A stretch of 64,000 bases of DNA from an uncultured Candidatus Rokubacteria bacterium (GCA_963762145.1 CAVXJS010000015.1:96001-160000); one strand, 5' to 3'. Shown: positions 13,065 through 19,936, counted from the first letter of the stretch. Numbers and translations: made by a program. The notes: generated by a model not told the origin, from the letters alone.

Positions 13065-13508
13065 TCACGGCGTCGTCTCCGACGCCCCCACGCGGCGCCC
13101 GTCGACTCTCCACTGCTCCCCCTCGCGCAGCACCGCGTACTCGACGCGGTCGGGCACCCCGTCCCTCTCCGCGGCCCGGGTGGCCTCGACCAGGAACACC
13201 ACGCGCGAGGGGCTGCGCCGGATCTGCTGCACGCGGAAGTCGGCGTAGCGCGGCTCGCTCGCCGCCCGCGACTCCGCGTACTCGGCGTCGGTGCCCCGCC
13301 CCTGCCGCGTCCACTCGGCCTGCACGCGCTTCGATAGGCGCGGCCAGCACGGCGCGAAGCGCCGCGTGCGCTCGCATGCGAAGTAGTCCTCGAGCGTCTG
13401 GCGGGCGCGGGCCAGCTCCACGCTGTTCTGGCCCGCCGCCGGCGCCGGCGCGCCCAGCGCGCCCAGCGCGAGCGCGCCCACCAGGGCCCACCGCGCGCGG
13501 ACGCGCAT
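13065..13508 (-). CDS. Hypothetical exported protein (possibly NTF2/DUF4878-like fold)
   Basis: Signal peptide MRVRARWALVGALALGALGAPAPA; C-terminal YAVLREGEQWRVD. The ORF track fuses it to recG only through a frameshift. Confidence 0.65.
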   Translation of the reverse strand: MRVRARWALVGALALGALGAPAPAAGQNSVELARARQTLEDYFACERTRRFAPCWPRLSKRVQAEWTRQGRGTDAEYAESRAASEPRYADFRVQQIRRSPSRVVFLVEATRAAERDGVPDRVEYAVLREGEQWRVDGRRVGASETTP

Positions 13509-15655
13509 CAGCCCACCCCGGCCAGGTCCAGCTTGCCGCGCCATCGCTGGAGCAGCGCGGCCCGCAGGGCCCGGTGGGGCGGCAGCGACGAGATTGGGGT
13601 CCTCGCGGATCAGCGCGACCGCGTCGCGCCGCGCGGCCTCGAGCGCGGCCGCGTCGCGGAGCAGGTCGGCGACGCGGAACTCGGGCAGGCCAGACTGGCG
13701 CGTGCCGAAGAAGTCGCCGGGGCCCCGCAGCGACAGATCGGCCTCCGCGATCTTGAAGCCGTCGTTGGTGGCGGTCATCGCCTCGAGGCGCCGCTTGGCG
13801 TCGTCGGACGAGGCGCCGGAGAGCAGGATGCAGTAGCTCTTCCACGGGCCGCGGCCGACGCGCCCGCGAAGCTGGTGGAGCTGGGAGAGGCCGAACCGCT
13901 CCGCGTGCTCGACGAGCATCACCGAAGCGTTCGGCACGTCGATCCCGACCTCGATGACGGTGGTCGACACCAGGACGTGGATGGCGCCCGCCTTGAACTC
14001 CCGCATCACGCGATCCTTCTCGGCGAAGGGCATGCGCCCGTGCAGCAGACCGATGGTGAGATCGGTGAAGACCTCGCCCTGCAGGCGCTCGGCCATCTCG
14101 GTCGCCGCCTGCAGATCGAGGGCCTCGGACTCCTCCACCAGCGGGCAGACCACGTAGACCTGGCGGCCGTCGCTCACCTGCTCGCGCAGGAAGCGGTAGA
14201 TCTTCCCGCGCGCCGAGCCGGGGCGCGACCGGGTGAGCACCGGCTTGCGCCCGGGCGGGAGCTGGTCGATCACCGAGACCTCGAGGTCGCCGTAGAGCGT
14301 GAGGGCGAGCGTGCGCGGGATCGGGGTGGCGGTCATCACCAGCACGTCCGGGCTCTCGCCCTTGCGCTTGAGCGTCGCGCGCTGGTGCACGCCGAACCGG
14401 TGCTGCTCGTCGACCACGGCCAGACCGAGGCGCCGGAAGCTCACCGCCTCCTGGACGAGCGCGTGCGTGCCGATCACGCAGCGGATCTCGCCCGCCGCGG
14501 CGGCCGCGAGCACCCGCTCGCGCGCCTTGCCCTTGACCGCGTTGGTCAGGAGCCCGACCTCCACGTCGAGAGGCCCGAGGAGCTGGGTCAGGGTCATGAA
14601 GTGCTGCTCGGCCAGGATCTCGGTCGGCGCCATCAGGGCCGCCTGGTAGCCGGCCTCGACCGCGGTGAGGATCGCGAGGGCCGCCACCATCGTCTTGCCC
14701 GACCCCACGTCGCCCTGGAGCAGCCGGTTCATCGGATAGGGCTCCGCCATGTCCTGGCGGATCTCGCGCCACACGCGCTCCTGCGCTTCCGTCAGCGCGA
14801 ACGGCAGCGAGCCGAGGAGGCGCCGGGCGAGCGCGCCGGGCGGGTTCATCGCGAGGCCGGGCTGACGGCCCTGCCGCTGCCGGCGGATCGCCAAGCCCAG
14901 CTGGAGCAGCAGGAACTCGTCGTAGACGAGGCGGCGCCGGGCCCCCGCGTAGTCGGTGTCCGCCTTCGGGAAGTGGCCGGCGCGCAGCGCCTCAGCGAGC
15001 GGCACGAGGCGGTGCTTCGCCCGCAGCGCGTCGGGCAGTGGATCTTCCAGGCCGTCCACGTAGCCGTCCACCAGCCGCTTCATCAGCCGGCGCATCGGCC
15101 GTGCGGTGAGGCCGCGCGTCAGCCCGTACACCGGCACCAGGCGGCCGGTGTGGAGCGTGTCGTCCGACGGCTCCCCTGCGCCCTCCGCGGGGTCGTCCTC
15201 GACGACCTCGTAGTCCTTCACGTTCATCTGAAGCGGCCCCGAGCGGTAGCGCTGCGCCTTGCCGTGGACGATGAGGCGCTGGCCGCGCTGGAAGAGGCGC
15301 TCGAGGTACGCCTGGCCGAACCACACGCAGGTGAGGAAGCCGGTGCCGTCGCTCAGCAGCACCGACAGCGGCACCCGTGGCCGGTTCCGGGGGGCGGGCT
15401 GATCGCCCGGATGGTCCCCGTCACCGTGGTCACGTCATCGGGCTTGAGGCTCCGGAGCGGGGTGAGCTGGCTCCGGTCCTCGTGCCGGAGTGGGAGGTAG
15501 TAGAGCGCGTCCTCCACGGTGTCGAGGCCCAGATTGGCGAGGAGCTTGGCCCGCTGGGGCCCGACGCCCTTGAGGAACTGGAGCGCCGTGGCGAGGGGAT
15601 GGGTCGCGGACGCTCCCGCGCTGCGCGGGGCGCCGGCCGGCTTACTCGGGGCCAA
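13508..15655 (-). CDS. recG: ATP-dependent DNA helicase RecG; frameshifts near 15380 and 13590
   Basis: LKGVGPQRA, MNRLLQGDVGSGKT, VDEQHRFGV, MTATPIPRTL, QLHQLRGRVGRG, GDFFGTRQSG. Confidence 0.95.
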
Positions 15656-15659
15656 CGGT

Positions 15660-15688
15660 TTGCCTCATGCCAGCCCTCATGCTATAAA
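15660..15688 (+). promoter_or_regulatory. Sigma70-like promoter of rpmB
   Basis: TTGCCT, 17 nt spacer ending in an extended -10 TGC, then TATAAA, 56 nt upstream of the ATG. Confidence 0.55.
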
Positions 15689-15744
15689 AGGTGGCCGCAT
15701 CCAGCAAACCACACTCAGACCCAGGGATCGGCAGGGGATCAAGC

Positions 15745-15936
15745 ATGGCTCGAATCTGTGATGTCTGCGGGAAGGGTCCGGCCGTCGGCCACAAGATCAG
15801 CCACGCCCACAACGTGACCAAGCGGCGGTGGCTTCCGAATCTGGTCTCGCTGCGCGCCATGGTCAAGGGCCGGCCGCAGCGGATGCGTGTCTGCACGCGC
15901 TGCCTGAAGGCCGGCAAGGTCGTCAAGGTCGTCTAG
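15745..15936 (+). CDS. rpmB: 50S ribosomal protein L28 (Zn-binding C+ form)
   Basis: [33 protein letters not shown]...[12 protein letters not shown]. Confidence 0.97.
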
Positions 15937-15943
15937 CTCGGTA

Positions 15944-15978
15944 GAAAAAGAGGGCGGGGGGTGTCACCACCCCCCGCC
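15944..15978 (-). terminator. Intrinsic terminator ending the AbiEi-like/peptide transcript; may also act on rpmB
   Basis: Perfect 11-bp stem GGCGGGGGGTG-tcac-CACCCCCCGCC followed on the minus strand by CTCTTTTTC. Confidence 0.75.
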
Positions 15979-16051
15979 GTACTCTGCAGCGTAGCTTCTG
16001 AATGAGTCCCGGTGGGAGGCCGCCACCCCCCACCGCACGACTACCGCACAC

Positions 16052-16093
16052 TTACTTCTTCTTCTTCTTGGCCGCCTTCTTCTTCTTCGCCAT
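16052..16093 (-). CDS. Ultra-short lysine-rich peptide MAKKKKAAKKKKK (13 aa)
   Basis: ATG...TAA with AAGGAGGTGA 8 nt upstream; all Lys codons are AAG; below the ORF-track size limit. Confidence 0.7.
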   Translation of the reverse strand: MAKKKKAAKKKKK

Positions 16094-16137
16094 GAGGGTC
16101 GTCACCTCCTTTCATTGAGAAATAACCTCACGCTTCG

Positions 16138-16209
16138 CTACTTCCTCTTACCCTTCTTGGTGGCCTTCTTCTTGCCACCCTTCTTGACCGCCTTCTTGCG
16201 CTTCGGCAT
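16138..16209 (-). CDS. Short lysine-rich peptide MPKRKKAVKKGGKKKATKKGKRK (23 aa)
   Basis: ATG...TAG with GGGAGGTGA 8 nt upstream, 30 nt after the AbiEi-like stop; 12 Lys and 2 Arg. Confidence 0.72.
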   Translation of the reverse strand: MPKRKKAVKKGGKKKATKKGKRK

Positions 16210-16239
16210 GTGAGGTCTCACCTCCCTTCGGTCGTGGAC

Positions 16240-17286
16240 TCAGTAACCCATCGCTTCGCGCCGGAGATGCGCGGCCTGATCCCGGCCGCGGCGCTCGTAG
16301 TGATAGAGGTCCGCGAAGAGCTGGGGCAGGCAGACCACCGGGAGCCCCCCCTTTGCCAGCGGGGCATAGAAGACGCCCTGGTCGTACGGAGAGAGCAGGT
16401 AGACGTTCCCCTCCCCCTCGGCCGGCCGTAGTCCCAGCGCCCGGGCCACCGGCTGCGGGTCGCCCTCCAGATAGCAGTGGATGGCCGGGAAGCGGACGTT
16501 CGGCGCCACAAGCGCGGCGCCCGAATGGAGCGTGAACGCGTACCGGCGGTGCGCCTCGTGGGCCGCCCGGCCCAGCTCCGCCACGAGCCCGCGGGTGATC
16601 CGCTCCGGGGAAAAGTAGGCCTGGACGTCGTTCTGCCGGTACGAGTAGGCCTCCACCCAGGCATCCAGGAGCTCCCCCGGCCGGGTGAGCTGGATACGCT
16701 GCTGGCCGTTCCGCTCGACCCAGGACAGCTCCTCGAGGCGCTTCACCACGTTGTGGGCATGGCCCAGGCTCACGTCGGCGGCCTTGGCCAGCTCCTCGAG
16801 CCGCCAGGCATGCTGGGGGTCTACCAGGATGACCCTGATGACCCTGGTCGCCCGGGGGGCGAACAGCGACTTCAGGGGCCGGTTGGAGGGCCGGAGGTTC
16901 GGCTTGCCCTCCTTCTCGATCAGCACGTTCTCGAAGCTCAGGTAGCAATTGCCGGAAAGGTCCAGGTACCCCAGCCCGCTCCGTTTGAGGAGGGACGCGC
17001 TCTGGGGGCTGATGTACGGGGATACCGCGACCGGGTAGGCCTCCGGCATGTCCTTGCGGATCTCCAAAAGCCTGGTCACGGCCTCCCTGATCTGCCGGGG
17101 TTGGCCGAGAGAACTGACACCAATTGCCAGTGTGTGAGGCCTGTCGCCCATCTTGAATTTCATCAGCAGATCAGCTGTTTGACCGCCTATCTTGACGTCG
17201 GCGGACTGCTCCCACCCACTGGCTTTCGACATCAACTCGCGCACCCGCTGCGCTGCCAGGGTCTTGATATCGTCTGCTTTCGCCAT
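16240..17286 (-). CDS. AbiEi-type (AbiEi_2-like) transcriptional regulator/antitoxin: degenerate restriction-endonuclease-like N-domain, wHTH, AbiEi C-domain
   Basis: YPVAVSPYISPQSASLLKRSGLGYLDLSGNCYL; HTH WRLEELAKAADVSLGHAHNVVKRL; C-terminal PVVCLPQLFADLYHYERRGRDQAAHL. Start MAKADDIK at 17286 has SD gaagga. Confidence 0.75.
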   Translation of the reverse strand: MAKADDIKTLAAQRVRELMSKASGWEQSADVKIGGQTADLLMKFKMGDRPHTLAIGVSSLGQPRQIREAVTRLLEIRKDMPEAYPVAVSPYISPQSASLLKRSGLGYLDLSGNCYLSFENVLIEKEGKPNLRPSNRPLKSLFAPRATRVIRVILVDPQHAWRLEELAKAADVSLGHAHNVVKRLEELSWVERNGQQRIQLTRPGELLDAWVEAYSYRQNDVQAYFSPERITRGLVAELGRAAHEAHRRYAFTLHSGAALVAPNVRFPAIHCYLEGDPQPVARALGLRPAEGEGNVYLLSPYDQGVFYAPLAKGGLPVVCLPQLFADLYHYERRGRDQAAHLRREAMGY

Positions 17287-17300
17287 TCCTTCTTGTCCAC

Positions 17301-17364
17301 TTTCACTTGTTCCTTCATTTTCAGCGTATGCTGAAACCATATGAACAAATGAAAATCCTGTCAA
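17301..17364 (-). promoter_or_regulatory. Promoter with a 54-bp palindromic operator for the AbiEi-like gene
   Basis: Minus strand TTGACA (17364-17359), 17 nt, TATGGT (17341-17336). Co-centred palindrome TTTCACTTGTTC-N6-TTTCAGC-gtat-GCTGAAA-N6-GAACAAATGAAA (17301-17354). Confidence 0.75.
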
Positions 17365-17380
17365 GCAAAAATCTTCGGGG

Positions 17381-17749
17381 TTACTGGTCCCCAATCCCTT
17401 CCATGGTCTCGTCGTCGAGGCCGAAGTAATGGCCGACCTCGTGGACCACGACGTCACGGACGAGATCAGCCATTTCCTCGGGATCCGCGCAGTCCTCTTC
17501 GATGGGACCCTGGTAGATGTGGATGGTGTCCGGCAGGACATTGCCGTAGGAGGAATCCCGGCGGGTGATGTCGATGCCCCGGTATAGCCCGTAGAGGGTG
17601 TCCGGAGGCTCGATCCCCATCTCGGCGAGCGTCGCGTCGTCGGCCCAGTCCTCGACCACGACGGCAATGTTGGCCAGCTTGTCGCGGAAGGCGCGCGGCA
17701 GCTTGCGGAGGGCCGAGTCGACGAGCGCTTCGAACTGCCGGCGGGTCAT
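17381..17749 (-). CDS. Zincin-like minimal metallopeptidase (Zincin_1/DUF1025)
   Basis: LYGLYRG...LPDTIHIYQGPI...VVHEVGHYFGLDD (HExxH). Confidence 0.9.
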   Translation of the reverse strand: MTRRQFEALVDSALRKLPRAFRDKLANIAVVVEDWADDATLAEMGIEPPDTLYGLYRGIDITRRDSSYGNVLPDTIHIYQGPIEEDCADPEEMADLVRDVVVHEVGHYFGLDDETMEGIGDQ

Positions 17750-17788
17750 CAGATGGCTGGCTGGGGACGGCTGGCAACTGCTCGGGGG

Positions 17789-19936
17789 CTAGACCCCTCG
17801 GACCCGCTCGACGTTGGCGATGTCCTTCACCTCGCGGATGGCCTGCATGATGTCCTGGAGCTGGCGCAGGTCGTCCACCTCGACCACGAAGTGGTTGAGG
17901 CCCTTGCGATCCTCGGTGACGGTGATCTCGGCCTTGATGATGTTCCCCTGCCGCGAGGAGATGGCGCTGGTGATCTCCGCCAGCAGGCCCGGGCGGTCCT
18001 GTCCGATGTAGACCGCGATGCGCACCGGCCGCTTGGTCGGCTCGCCCGCCTCCCACTCCACCGCCACCAGCCGCTCCTTCTCGAGCACGTTCTTGACCAC
18101 CGTGAGGCAGTCGCGGGCGTGCACGGTCAGGCCGCGCCCTCGCGTGATGAAGCCCACGATGCCGTCACCGGGCACGGGCGAGCAGCACTTCCCGAAGCGG
18201 ACGAGCAGGTCGTCCACGCCCCGGATCCGGACCGCGGTGCCGTCGGCGCGTCGCGCCGGGCGGGCCGGCTTCGCTTCCGCGGGGGCCTCGCCATCGGCCG
18301 CCGGCGGTGCCACCCGGCCCAGGACCTGCTGGATCGACGTCTTGCCGTAGCCGATCGACGCCAGCAGGTCGTCCACGGTCGGGAACCCCAGCTCGACGGT
18401 GACCTTCTTCATCTCGTCGGAGGCGAGCAGGGTCGACGGAGCCAGCCGGTACTTCCGGGCCTCGCGCTCGAAGAACTCCCGGCCGAGCGCCAGCGAGCGG
18501 GTGCGCTCCTCGATCTTCAGCCACTGGTTGATCTTGGCGCGGGCGCGGTTCGACTTGACGATCTTGAGCCAGTCGCGGCTCGGATGCTGGGTGGGCGACG
18601 TCACGATCTCGACGATGTCGCCCTGGTGGAGCGTGTAGCGAAGCGGGACCAGCTTGCCGTTCACCTTCGCCCCGACGCAGTGATGCCCGACGTCGGTGTG
18701 CACGGTGTAGGCGAAGTCCACCGGGGTGGCGCCGTCGGGAAGGGCCTTCACGTCCCCGCGCGGGGTGAACACGTACACCTCGTCGGGGAACAGGTCGAGG
18801 CGGACGCTGTCGAGGAACTCCTTGGGGTCGCTCGTCTCGTTCTGCGACTCCAGGAGCTGGCGAAGCCAGGTGAACGCGTCGTCGAACTTGTCGCGGTCGC
18901 TCCGCTTCTCCTTGTAGAGCCAGTGGGCCGCGATACCTTCCTCGGCGATCCGGTGCATCTCCCCCGTGCGGATCTGGATCTCGACCGGGTCGCCCTTGGG
19001 CCCGATCACCGTCGTGTGCAGCGACTGGTACATGTTGACCTTGGGCATCGCGATGAAGTCCTTGAAGCGGCCGGGCACCGGCTTCCACAGCGAGTGCACG
19101 ACCCCCAGGGCCCCGTAGCAGTCGCGGACGGTATTGGTCAGCACGCGGACCGCGGTGAGGTCGTAGATCTCGTCGAATTCGCGCCCGCCCTCGTGCATCT
19201 TCTTCCAGATCGAATAGAAGTGCTTCGGCCGGCCCGCGATCTTGGACCCGATCCCCACCTCCCCCAGCTTCTCGTGGAGCAGCGTGATCAGGTGGTTGAT
19301 CTCCGCCTCGCGCTCGAGCCGCCGCTTGGCGACGCGGCGCATCAACTCCTGGTAGTCGTCCGGATGCAGGACCCGGAGGGCCAGGTCCTCGAGCTCCGCC
19401 TTGACCTTGGCCATCCCGAGGCGGTGGGCCAGAGGGGCATAGATGTCGAGGGTCTCCTGAGCGATCTTCCGGGCCTTCTCCGTGGGCAGGTACTGGAGCG
19501 TCCGCATGTTGTGCAACCGGTCGGCCAGCTTGATCATCAGCACGCGGAGGTCCCGTGCCATGGCCACCAGCATCTTGCGGAAGTTCTCGGCCTGGCGCTC
19601 CTCCCGGGAGGAGAAGGCCAGCTTGCCGATCTTCGTCACGCCATCCACCAGCTCGGCGATCTCGGTGCCGAACTCGCGCTGGAGGTCCCCCTTGGTGGCC
19701 TTGGTGTCCTCCAAAACGTCGTGGAGGAGCCCGGCCGTGACCGTGGTCACGTCCATCTTGAAGTTGACGAGGAGGCCGGCAACCTCGAGGGGGTGGGACA
19801 GGTAGGGCTCGCCGGAAGCGCGCTGCTGACCGAGGTGGGAGCGCTCAGAGAATCGGTAGGCGCGCTCCAGGAGATCCAGGTTGGCGGCAGGCTGGTACTT
19901 GGGGATCTCGTCGATCAGCGTCTGCAGTTGGGTCAA
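17789..19936 (-). CDS. rel: Bifunctional (p)ppGpp synthetase/hydrolase (RelA/SpoT)
   Basis: RASGEPYLSHP, HD motif LLHDVLED, IKLADRLHNMRTL, YQSLHTTV, TGS and ACT domains. Confidence 0.97.
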   Translation of the reverse strand: MTQLQTLIDEIPKYQPAANLDLLERAYRFSERSHLGQQRASGEPYLSHPLEVAGLLVNFKMDVTTVTAGLLHDVLEDTKATKGDLQREFGTEIAELVDGVTKIGKLAFSSREERQAENFRKMLVAMARDLRVLMIKLADRLHNMRTLQYLPTEKARKIAQETLDIYAPLAHRLGMAKVKAELEDLALRVLHPDDYQELMRRVAKRRLEREAEINHLITLLHEKLGEVGIGSKIAGRPKHFYSIWKKMHEGGREFDEIYDLTAVRVLTNTVRDCYGALGVVHSLWKPVPGRFKDFIAMPKVNMYQSLHTTVIGPKGDPVEIQIRTGEMHRIAEEGIAAHWLYKEKRSDRDKFDDAFTWLRQLLESQNETSDPKEFLDSVRLDLFPDEVYVFTPRGDVKALPDGATPVDFAYTVHTDVGHHCVGAKVNGKLVPLRYTLHQGDIVEIVTSPTQHPSRDWLKIVKSNRARAKINQWLKIEERTRSLALGREFFEREARKYRLAPSTLLASDEMKKVTVELGFPTVDDLLASIGYGKTSIQQVLGRVAPPAADGEAPAEAKPARPARRADGTAVRIRGVDDLLVRFGKCCSPVPGDGIVGFITRGRGLTVHARDCLTVVKNVLEKERLVAVEWEAGEPTKRPVRIAVYIGQDRPGLLAEITSAISSRQGNIIKAEITVTEDRKGLNHFVVEVDDLRQLQDIMQAIREVKDIANVERVRGV

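Follow-up and report, generated by a model that had tools for sequence, protein, structure and literature searches.

We analyzed a 64,000-nucleotide stretch of DNA (the window; GCA_963762145.1 CAVXJS010000015.1:96001-160000) from an uncultured Candidatus Rokubacteria bacterium, and we report on a short minus-strand operon within it. A single promoter precedes the gene for a 348-amino-acid regulator of the AbiEi antitoxin kind (X348) and two very small open reading frames (ORFs), micro-ORF1 and micro-ORF2, whose predicted products consist mostly of lysine. The source organism is a soil-dwelling member of the Rokubacteria (order Rokubacteriales, phylum Methylomirabilota), and its 6.26-Mb genome, with 70% G+C, is represented by an assembly that is 88% complete. 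Read on the minus strand from position 17600 to 15700, the window presents the end of a zincin gene, the promoter, a palindrome, the 348-codon ORF, micro-ORF1, micro-ORF2, a stem-loop, and a terminator. Beyond the unit come a convergent rpmB gene and then, again on the minus strand, recG; the zincin gene has relA/spoT on its upstream side. The unit is intact in every orthologous locus that we examined, and these loci have no toxin gene, a conserved operator-like palindrome, and a covarying 3′ stem-loop.

A preliminary description of the same DNA had given coordinates and motifs for a minus-strand unit of this makeup. Each element was found where it had been placed, including the TTGACA-17-TATGGT promoter (17364-17336) and the intrinsic terminator, with its 11-bp stem at 15978-15953 and a run of T residues. 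The features are as follows, with positions counted from the first letter of the window and the Shine-Dalgarno sequence abbreviated as SD.

17336..17364, minus strand: sigma-70-type promoter; -35 box TTGACA at 17364-17359, 17-nt spacer, -10 box TATGGT at 17341-17336; 10 of 12 consensus positions match
17301..17354, minus strand: imperfect 54-bp palindrome, putative operator; 25-nt arms that are 76% complementary, 4-nt spacer (repeat search)
17319..17336, minus strand: core of the putative operator, TTTCAGC-ATAC-GCTGAAA, abutting the last base of the -10 box
16240..17286, minus strand: X348 regulator, 348 aa, three domains; no good SD before its ATG
16218..16225, minus strand: SD of micro-ORF1, GGAGGTGA, with 8 nt between it and the ATG; no variation across the genus alignment
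16138..16209, minus strand: micro-ORF1, 23 codons plus stop, MPKRKKAVKKGGKKKATKKGKRK (read from the sequence)
16102..16109, minus strand: SD of micro-ORF2, GGAGGTGA, with 8 nt between it and the ATG; conserved across the aligned genus loci
16052..16093, minus strand: micro-ORF2, 13 codons plus stop, MAKKKKAAKKKKK (read from the sequence)
16010..16035, minus strand: conserved 3′ stem-loop CGGTGGGGGGT-ggcg-GCCTCCCACCG, 11 bp, followed by GGACTCAT at 16009-16002 (genus alignment)
15943..15978, minus strand: intrinsic terminator, 11-bp G+C stem, 4-nt loop, CTCTTTTTCT tail; 17 nt from the rpmB stop codon
17381..17749, minus strand: Zincin_1 metallopeptidase-family gene (Pfam PF06262, E 4.7e-32); upstream neighbor, possibly part of the same inserted block
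17394-17375, minus strand: terminator-like hairpin of the zincin gene (terminator search)
15742..15936, plus strand: rpmB, encoding ribosomal protein L28 (Pfam Ribosomal_L28, E 4.8e-22); convergent, a context marker outside the operon

Micro-ORFs, promoter region, and 3′ stem-loop

Both tiny ORFs of the preliminary description are present, each with its SD exactly 8 nt ahead of the ATG. Only six ORFs of 8-40 aa with at least 50% lysine occur in the whole genome, and three of them have an SD, namely these two and one on another contig. We compared 69 orthologous loci from 69 genomes (the 49 best loci returned and 20 picked from the remaining same-order matches, with further ortholog-bearing genomes left out), at which the regulator is 53-100% identical to the source X348. 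One of these loci, L029, comes from an unpublished genome; without it, the counts become 68/68. Lysine-rich micro-ORFs with an SD-like core 4-12 nt before the start codon lie directly downstream of the regulator in 69/69 loci, in agreement with the proposal that the peptides occupy the position of a toxin gene. There are 136 such micro-ORFs, with one in 5 loci, two in 61, and three in 3. They are 10-25 aa long, start with ATG (119) or GTG (17), and encode 50 distinct peptides. Excluding Met1, the composition of the 136 products is K 63.8%, A 19.8%, R 6.0%, G 4.7%, and T 2.8%, and the residues D, E, F, W, Y, L, I, C, N, and Q are absent. By comparison, six neighboring proteins contain 4.1% K and 9.7% R. 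The high lysine content of peptides encoded in a 70% G+C genome therefore indicates strong selection for lysine.

The pattern of variation among the loci shows that the micro-ORFs are constrained at the protein level, with frame, start, stop, and lysines kept while the spacers drift. Across an alignment of 17 loci from the genus, the SDs and ORFs are near-invariant, and the spacer between micro-ORF1 and the second SD varies through indels that are not multiples of 3. The lone indel inside an ORF of this alignment, in micro-ORF1, is a 3-nt AAG that keeps the frame. The micro-ORF2 peptide is identical in 17/17 genus loci while the spacer that precedes it varies in sequence and length. ORFs of the MAKKK[K]A[AT]KKKK type persist in loci down to 53% regulator identity. 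The pattern MAKKK[AT][AT]KKKK was found in 62 of 151 genomes of the phylum, all from the same order, compared with 0/151 for a reversed-pattern control, and the matches listed use all four alanine codons and both lysine codons. None of the orthologous loci lacked the micro-ORFs or carried frame-breaking variation: 69/69 were intact and in frame. From this conservation, we consider it very probable that the micro-ORFs are real, translated genes in a regulated operon.

The peptides have left little trace in annotation or in the literature. The preliminary description held that standard gene callers would miss both, which proved incorrect for micro-ORF1: its exact 23-aa product is already in the JGI/IMG protein collection, unnamed, on 11 contigs. 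Micro-ORF1 matched 0 NCBIfam families and gave 0 phmmer hits to PDB chains at E up to 10, with little power expected of a 23-aa, low-complexity query. A search of 8.4 million papers and preprints, supplementary tables aside, did not turn up the exact peptide strings. Word searches for lysine-rich small ORFs, tiny ribosomal proteins, and polylysine small proteins returned no relevant literature on oligolysine micro-genes. Likewise, no toxin-less AbiEi operon with peptide genes turned up in these literature searches; AbiE biology itself is well described.

The promoter is the only promoter-like site in the 2.2 kb from 15600 to 17800, where 0.2 would be expected from shuffled sequence, and the pattern TTGAC[AT]-N16-18-TAnnnT occurs upstream of the ortholog in 69/69 loci. 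The 54-bp palindrome that the preliminary description had noted over the promoter is indeed there, although it is imperfect, with arms that are 76% complementary. It covers the promoter spacer, the -10 box, and the transcript start. Its outer arms read TTTCAtTTG ... CAAGTGAAA, and both (TTTCA within the promoter spacer and CAAGTGAAA ahead of the ATG) are visible across the 69 upstream regions. The core TTTCAGC-N4-GCTGAAA is exact in 61/69 loci, and the remaining 8 each differ from it at one position. In 68/69 loci its first base is the final base of the -10 box, and it occurs once in the 6.26-Mb genome. Bases flanking the core often extend its symmetry with differing sequence, as in locus L026 (AGGTTTCAGCA..TGCTGAAACCT). 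The overlap of the left arm with the -10 box means that this arm is most likely untranscribed, and the palindrome is accordingly more likely to be a DNA operator than an RNA hairpin. A scan of 15600-17500 against Rfam at E up to 1 returned nothing above noise; the sole hit, to a plant microRNA model, fell on the promoter palindrome (E 0.074; 24 bits compared with a gathering threshold of 96) and was taken as chance.

Inverted repeats over the promoter, which the regulator would bind, are a conserved sequence feature here. In two AbiE studies, AbiEi is described as binding a pair of 23-bp inverted repeats that overlap its promoter with 3 bp between them, and Rv2827c as binding repeats over the transcription start (PMC3985639, PMC7319586). 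The arrangement in the window is similar, with 25-nt arms, 4 bp apart, over the -10/+1 region. We lean toward the view that X348 represses its own operon through this palindrome.

The 3′ end of the unit is also conserved. The stem-loop after micro-ORF2 is identical in 15/17 genus loci, and the other two have CCCTCC for CCTCCC in the 3′ arm. Using a per-sequence hairpin search with shuffled controls, we found a perfect stem of at least 6 bp after the last micro-ORF in 68/68 loci and a stem of at least 9 bp in 59/68, compared with 125/1380 shuffles (9%). There are 32 distinct stems with compensatory changes, such as GGGGGG/CCTCCC versus GGGAGG/CCTTCC, and GGGTCAGGG/CCCTGACCC in the second family. 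Family f1 has an almost frozen stem-loop sequence, after which comes G[GC]ACTCAT. The stem-loop may serve as a stabilizer of the 3′ end, as a processing site, or as a binding site for a protein. MAFFT alignment and RNAalifold analysis of 66 distinct 3′ tails predicted no pairs, because the 5′ arms fail to line up when loop lengths differ. Folding of the entire 3′ region gave a z-score of -4.27. We also considered the 3′ arm CCUCCCACC as a mimic of the anti-SD sequence and rejected the idea, as the second family reads CCCUGACCC and the feature is unconserved. As a separate observation, the stem-loop (16014-16038) and the terminator hairpin (15953-15982) are 76% alike as direct repeats, as if by duplication.

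A stem-loop that is almost invariant within a family, covaries between families, and sits in a strongly negative-scoring fold would suit a functional product that is a purine-rich small RNA with a conserved 3′ hairpin, the reading frames being incidental. However, 136/136 micro-ORF copies keep their SD distance, start, lysine frame, and stop, the variation is in third positions or in frame, and no Rfam family scored above noise. We therefore regard an RNA-only product as very improbable.

The regulator and its toxin-linked relatives

The AbiEi-type assignment of the preliminary description was upheld by sequence, fold, and genomic company: an AbiEi_2 match above the cut-off, a fold match to a known AbiEi, and relatives that stand ahead of AbiEii-like genes. 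Residues 199-342 of X348 match Pfam AbiEi_2 (PF09952) with 24.3 bits, above the cut-off of 21 (26.3 bits when the genome was searched), and residues 145-193 match HTH_IclR, MarR, and MarR_2, all under their cut-offs. An AlphaFold2 model built from a 37-sequence alignment (predicted local distance difference test [pLDDT] 90.4, predicted template modeling score [pTM] 0.70) was compared with known structures using Foldseek and Z-scored fold matches. The model has three domains: a PD-(D/E)xK-like domain (~1-125), a winged helix-turn-helix (wHTH; ~138-200), and an AbiEi-type C-domain with a nucleotidyltransferase-like fold (~203-346). The N-domain matches AF1548 (Z 11.2), NucS/EndoMS (Z 10.4), and Can2/Card1-type nuclease domains (Z ~9), and residues ~133-213 match the wHTH domains of MarR, Crp, and ArsR (Z 8-9.6). 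The C-domain (229-348) matches nucleotidyltransferase folds (MenT1, Z 10.2; ANT(2''), Z 10.2). Residues 228-348 align with residues 55-169 of Streptococcus agalactiae AbiEi (6y8q) with Z 8.6 and a root-mean-square deviation of 3.1 over 102 aligned residues. The AbiEi_2 bit score and the 6y8q Z score are both moderate.

The preliminary description had called the protein an AbiEi-type wHTH protein; the wHTH is there, but the picture was incomplete, as the additional nuclease-like domain at the N-terminus had gone unnoticed. In one description (PMC3985639), the wHTH of canonical AbiEi is N-terminal. In X348 it is the middle domain, and relative to AbiE the protein gains an N-terminal PD-(D/E)xK-like domain whose catalytic lysine is lost in orthologs. 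Within the nuclease motif D39...E56-x-K58, K58 is kept in 6/8 toxin-linked paralogs and missing in 29/29 aligned orthologs, and the source X348 also has G56. Given the loss of K58, the N-domain of the orthologs (window 16912-17286) is probably not catalytic. Named database relatives of X348 come from Methylomirabilota/Rokubacteria metagenome-assembled genomes (MAGs) and are annotated as "type IV toxin-antitoxin system AbiEi family antitoxin." We file X348 as a new, toxin-less variant of the AbiEi kind.

X348 is part of the core gene set of its order. It was present in 59/61 close relatives and in 103/106 Rokubacteriales genomes including the source genome (family f1 90/93, f4 11/11, f3 1/1), and the three genomes without a match are 73-87% complete. 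In a phylum-wide sample of other orders, a match occurred in 5/45 genomes, always at 33-42% identity. Similarly, in a library of representatives at 50% identity, identity falls straight to ~40% beyond the ortholog cluster. This drop, together with presence throughout the order, indicates that the ortholog group is discrete.

No toxin gene accompanies the regulator at these loci. There is no AbiEii-like ORF between the regulator and the terminator, PF08843 (AbiEii) has 0 matches in the 88%-complete assembly, and the AbiEi_2 gene described here is the only one in it, all of which agrees with the earlier proposal of a toxin-less locus. None of the orthologous loci (0/69) has room for a toxin gene, with rpmB following within ~0.3-0.8 kb. 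The more distant relatives differ on both counts. Lysine ORFs were found at 0/42 loci of relatives with 33-45% identity. At the paralog loci within the phylum (33-45% identity), lysine ORFs are present in 0/13, most have a tightly coupled ORF of ~250-305 aa, and 5/10 of the downstream ORFs scanned match AbiEii or NTP_transf_8. A full-length homolog with 39% identity gave the same picture at 29 metagenomic loci with downstream sequence: 0 lysine ORFs, mostly a 263-295-aa ORF whose start falls at the stop codon, and AbiEii or NTP_transf_8 matches for 7/10 ORFs scanned, two of them above the AbiEii cut-off. In both sets pooled, 12/20 scanned downstream ORFs match AbiEii/NTP_transf_8, mostly under the Pfam cut-off. 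These results show that the regulator family originated next to AbiEii-like nucleotidyltransferases. The expectation that homologs would combine lysine-rich, SD-led micro-ORFs with absence of AbiEii thus held for 69/69 orthologs and failed for relatives at 33-45% identity, which pair with AbiEii-like genes.

The operon resembles AbiE systems of the type IV toxin-antitoxin and abortive-infection kind (AbiEi plus the AbiEii DUF1814 nucleotidyltransferase, as in S. agalactiae and in Rv2827c-Rv2826c of Mycobacterium tuberculosis) in being short and led by the regulator gene, whose product has a wHTH and an AbiEi-type C-domain. AbiE carries a toxin gene, whereas this operon has one to three oligolysine micro-genes instead. 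AbiE loci are patchy in distribution, whereas this locus lies on the chromosome in a single copy, with synteny kept throughout an order.

Lack of a toxin gene and an AbiEi_2 score just over the cut-off are also what might be seen in a decayed AbiE remnant in which the AAG tracts are chance simple repeats. That reading, to which we assign almost no probability, is refuted by the intact conservation of the locus across the whole order, by the conserved promoter and operator, and by the pattern control (0/151 reversed matches compared with 62 genomes for the real pattern); moreover, SD-led lysine-rich ORFs number only three in 6.26 Mb. The ortholog group is in the core set, order-wide and intact, and is therefore a stable toxin-less derivative and not a decayed remnant.

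The surroundings of the operon are conserved as well. The order regulator, micro-ORFs, convergent rpmB, recG is kept in nearly all loci with enough flanking sequence, and the zincin gene lies upstream of the regulator in most ortholog loci, adjoining it in many and ~2 kb away in others. In sister orders (5 genomes from five families), relA, convergent rpmB, and recG are directly adjacent, with ~0.2 kb between relA and rpmB, and none of the five rpmB loci has the zincin gene, X348, or a lysine ORF. In the corresponding region of the window (13065-19936), the zincin gene, regulator, and micro-ORFs are an order-specific insertion between relA and rpmB. Given the adjacency of relA, rpmB, and recG in sister orders, the block was inserted or assembled there in the common ancestor of Rokubacteriales, and its descendants have retained it. 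Two further observations concern this region: rpmB here lacks rpmG beside it, bL33 being encoded on another contig; and parts of the window are present in 24 sequencing runs, 12 recorded as RNA, with all shares at or below 0.30.

Oligolysine genes outside the operon

The SD-led lysine-rich ORF on another contig of the source genome is a third oligolysine micro-gene:

contig C11 ~513185-513226 (locus L204:2986-3027), minus strand, outside the window: third oligolysine micro-gene, MAKKKAAKKKKKK, with its own promoter TTGACA-17-TAGAGT and SD GGGAGGGGGGTGA

This copy is flanked by a phosphoribosyltransferase-domain gene on one side and an EamA transporter gene on the other, and its site was matched in 8/9 sampled genomes of the genus, including the source genome. 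A near-identical signature, GGATCGGGAGGGGGGTGACA, lies upstream of the stand-alone copy on Rokubacteria/Methylomirabilota-labeled contigs of other MAGs. We considered control of this copy by X348 and rejected it, since the palindrome occurs nowhere else in the genome.

We then looked beyond the phylum in a cross-species scan (one genome per species), in which at least 119 stretches matched. Among the matches listed, the 51 loci labeled Rokubacteria/Methylomirabilota gave 64/64 matches that are SD-led ORFs of 11-13 aa. At the 68 listed loci with other labels, 57/70 matches are ORFs of at most 20 aa, 51 of these with an SD-like motif, and the remaining 13/70 head longer proteins, most of them K/A-rich. 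The bacterial labels listed include Parcubacteria, Kerfeldbacteria, Saccharibacteria, Brocadiales, Verrucomicrobiota, Eisenbacteria, Spirochaetia, Armatimonadetes, and Vicinamibacterales, and the archaeal labels include Nano-, Woese-, Pace-, and Aenigmatarchaeota. Some taxon labels are doubtful, and several such contigs carry Rokubacteria synteny. Locus L157, on a contig deposited as Candidatus Acidoferrum, shows complete Rokubacteria-type synteny, with secF, relA, zincin, regulator, and rpmB 63-77% identical, and this contig is likely mis-binned or mislabeled. Three loci, L151 (from the same MAG as L157), L131 (Nitrosocosmicus), and L172 (Deferrimicrobiaceae), have only the Rokubacteria-type stand-alone cassette at ~69-73% G+C and may possibly be mis-binned or mislabeled.

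Outside the order, the micro-ORF stands beside unrelated genes. Its neighbor is an M50 peptidase gene in five MAGs of DPANN (small-genome archaea), with synonymous differences in the ORF, and elsewhere neighbors include aminoacyl-tRNA synthetases, DNA ligase, and BipA. At several bacterial loci a hairpin with a T-run comes after the ORF, at archaeal loci oligo-T tracts do, and a convergent next gene is common. In its exact form the motif is sporadic: it was found in 1/151 genomes sampled from the phylum of a Nanoarchaeota-labeled seed and in 1/61 genomes sampled from the order of a Brocadiales-labeled seed, in each case the seed only. For so short and simple a sequence, homology and convergence across phyla are indistinguishable. 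The preliminary description had called the peptides the cargo of the operon; they are not specific to this regulator, given the stand-alone third copy in the same genome and the same micro-ORF beside unrelated housekeeping genes in other phyla.

The N-terminus MAKKKA[AT]KKKK also heads proteins of 42-365 aa, most of which are K/A/T-rich throughout (loci L085, L096, L119, L122, L135, L138, L153, L170, L173, and L188), in Phycisphaerae, Planctomycetota, Sumerlaeota, Betaproteobacteria, OM182, and DPANN MAGs. Two of the longer proteins give weak hits to HC2 (PF07382), at 21.2-21.7 bits where the cut-off is 40; the micro-ORFs themselves lack the length needed for a score. Bacterial histone-H1-like proteins rich in lysine and alanine include Pseudomonas AlgP. 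HC2-type proteins (chlamydial Hc2) share with the micro-ORF products a K/A/T/G composition, and the identical N-terminus is found on K/A-repeat proteins. They differ in being repeat-built and tens to hundreds of residues long, whereas the products described here are single units of 10-25 aa. At locus L153, a poly-K/A/T tail of ~80 residues is fused to an AhpC/TSA peroxiredoxin domain.

These free-standing copies bear on the idea that the operon is still a toxin-antitoxin (TA) or defense module, in which oligolysines replace AbiEii as growth-arresting effectors and the former antitoxin holds them off until a phage or stress trigger. The peptides do sit at the exact position of the toxin gene of relatives, the regulator keeps an antitoxin-type C-domain, and polycations at high dose could plausibly harm ribosomes or the nucleoid. 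Nevertheless, the genome has an unregulated third copy with its own strong promoter, and the same ORF occurs without any regulator in other phyla. In addition, TA and defense loci are usually patchy or mobile, and this one is a single-copy, syntenic member of the core set in 103/106 genomes. A retained TA or defense role is thus quite improbable.

Proposed functions of the operon

We favor the view that the locus is a conserved Rokubacteriales operon in which one promoter drives a toxin-less AbiEi descendant and one to three oligolysine micro-cistrons (10-25 residues), with autorepression and with the peptides serving as polycations. Taken as a whole, this view has in our estimate an even chance of being right; we infer its steps of translation, repression, and peptide function. 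X348, with its poor ribosome-binding site, would be made in small amounts and would bind the palindrome over the -10 box and +1, repressing its own operon in the manner of AbiEi. Once that repression lifts, the perfect SDs would load ribosomes efficiently, and the same mRNA would yield peptide in high amounts. Every micro-ORF has an SD-like motif, but only 5/69 loci have one ahead of the X348 ATG, which suggests low regulator and high peptide output from one mRNA. The micro-ORFs are the terminal cistrons, the terminator and convergent rpmB coming next, and the stem-loop and terminator would define and stabilize the 3′ end, closing the transcript before rpmB. After removal of Met1, the peptides would carry a charge of about +7 to +13, with 64% Lys, 20% Ala, and no acidic or bulky residues. 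They may act in trans as small, diffusible polycations on RNA, ribosomes, or DNA, representing the shortest end of the lysine/alanine-rich, histone-H1-tail-like proteins. We hold such a role on nucleic acids only tentatively, at somewhat less than an even chance.

Several points weigh against this view. The frozen sequence of the stem-loop suggests that the RNA itself is recognized by something, which a pure peptide model does not predict. The third copy has its own promoter and no palindrome, and therefore the regulator cannot control all peptide output. The sporadic occurrence of the motif outside the order makes a universal housekeeping role for the exact peptide unlikely. Lysine is preferred over arginine by ~10:1, a preference that generic nucleic-acid binding does not explain, and the model does not account for the signal sensed by X348.

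The preference for lysine would follow directly if lysine codons were what mattered, that is, if the micro-ORFs acted in cis through their translation. Lysine codons behind perfect SDs would then load or stall ribosomes, with the peptides as by-products, and the outcome could be sensing of Lys-tRNA or translation status, protection of the mRNA, or control of hairpin read-through into rpmB antisense and recG. The classical layout of leader peptides, as in the trp, his, and thr attenuators, is a short ORF enriched in a single amino acid with hairpins and a terminator after it. The operon shares this layout with trpL, hisL, and thrL, its conserved stem-loop directly follows the last ORF, and recG lies on the same strand past rpmB. 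It differs in that the ORFs are at the 3′ end of the operon with no co-directional gene before the strong terminator and rpmB, which is convergent order-wide, whereas leader attenuators precede co-directional genes of the pathway of the enriched amino acid. No locus that we checked has a lysine-metabolism neighbor or a lysine pathway gene downstream, and in other lineages the ORF comes last in its transcription unit, with unrelated genes alongside. Furthermore, alanine is kept at positions 2, 6, and 7 with all four alanine codons in use, which indicates a constraint on residues and not on lysine codons alone, and no alternative antiterminator pairing was identified. On balance, we consider action in cis unlikely.

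The peptides might instead be lineage-specific ribosomal micro-proteins, the smallest yet, comparable to bL37, bS22, Thx, and eL41. Tiny ribosomal proteins in other phyla have been found only by cryo-electron microscopy, and like them the products here are very short, highly basic, lineage-restricted, and prone to evade annotation. Strong SDs and several copies per genome would suit an abundant, stoichiometric component, the locus lies between relA and rpmB, and neighbors in other phyla include aminoacyl-tRNA synthetases and BipA. However, the unit is convergent with rpmB and not co-transcribed with it, and a dedicated repressor would be unusual for a ribosomal protein. Known micro-ribosomal proteins are Arg-rich and of fixed length, with bL37, bS22, Thx, and eL41 at 24-33 aa, whereas the peptides are Lys/Ala-rich, vary from 10 to 25 aa and from one to three copies, and in their common form (10-13 aa) are half that size or less. 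The searches of NCBIfam and PDB chains with micro-ORF1 gave no match, although the query is too short for much power. We also considered the peptides as a stand-in for a missing small ribosomal protein and rejected this, as bL33, bL36, bL34, and bS21 are all present in the genome and leave no gap to fill. A ribosomal function is accordingly improbable.

Returning to the polycation view, a wider form of it can be proposed, although we regard it as rather doubtful: oligolysines may be widespread, unannotated, genetically encoded, polyamine-like polycations of uncultured bacteria and archaea, borne on their own cassettes with a recognized RNA tail. In Rokubacteriales, the former antitoxin would then be a dedicated switch at the relA/rpmB insertion that ties their supply to the stress or translation state. 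The locus has features that the free-standing copies lack, namely a dedicated regulator with a recognizable operator, a clear evolutionary origin, and an exact insertion point between relA and rpmB. It also offers a clean example of antitoxin domestication, in which a toxin-antitoxin regulator is reused for other cargo and the lysine of its nuclease motif is lost in all orthologs examined. If the peptides are made, they would be among the shortest conserved gene products known, with mature common forms of 9-12 residues, and cells would encode oligolysine directly in genes that standard annotation has largely ignored.

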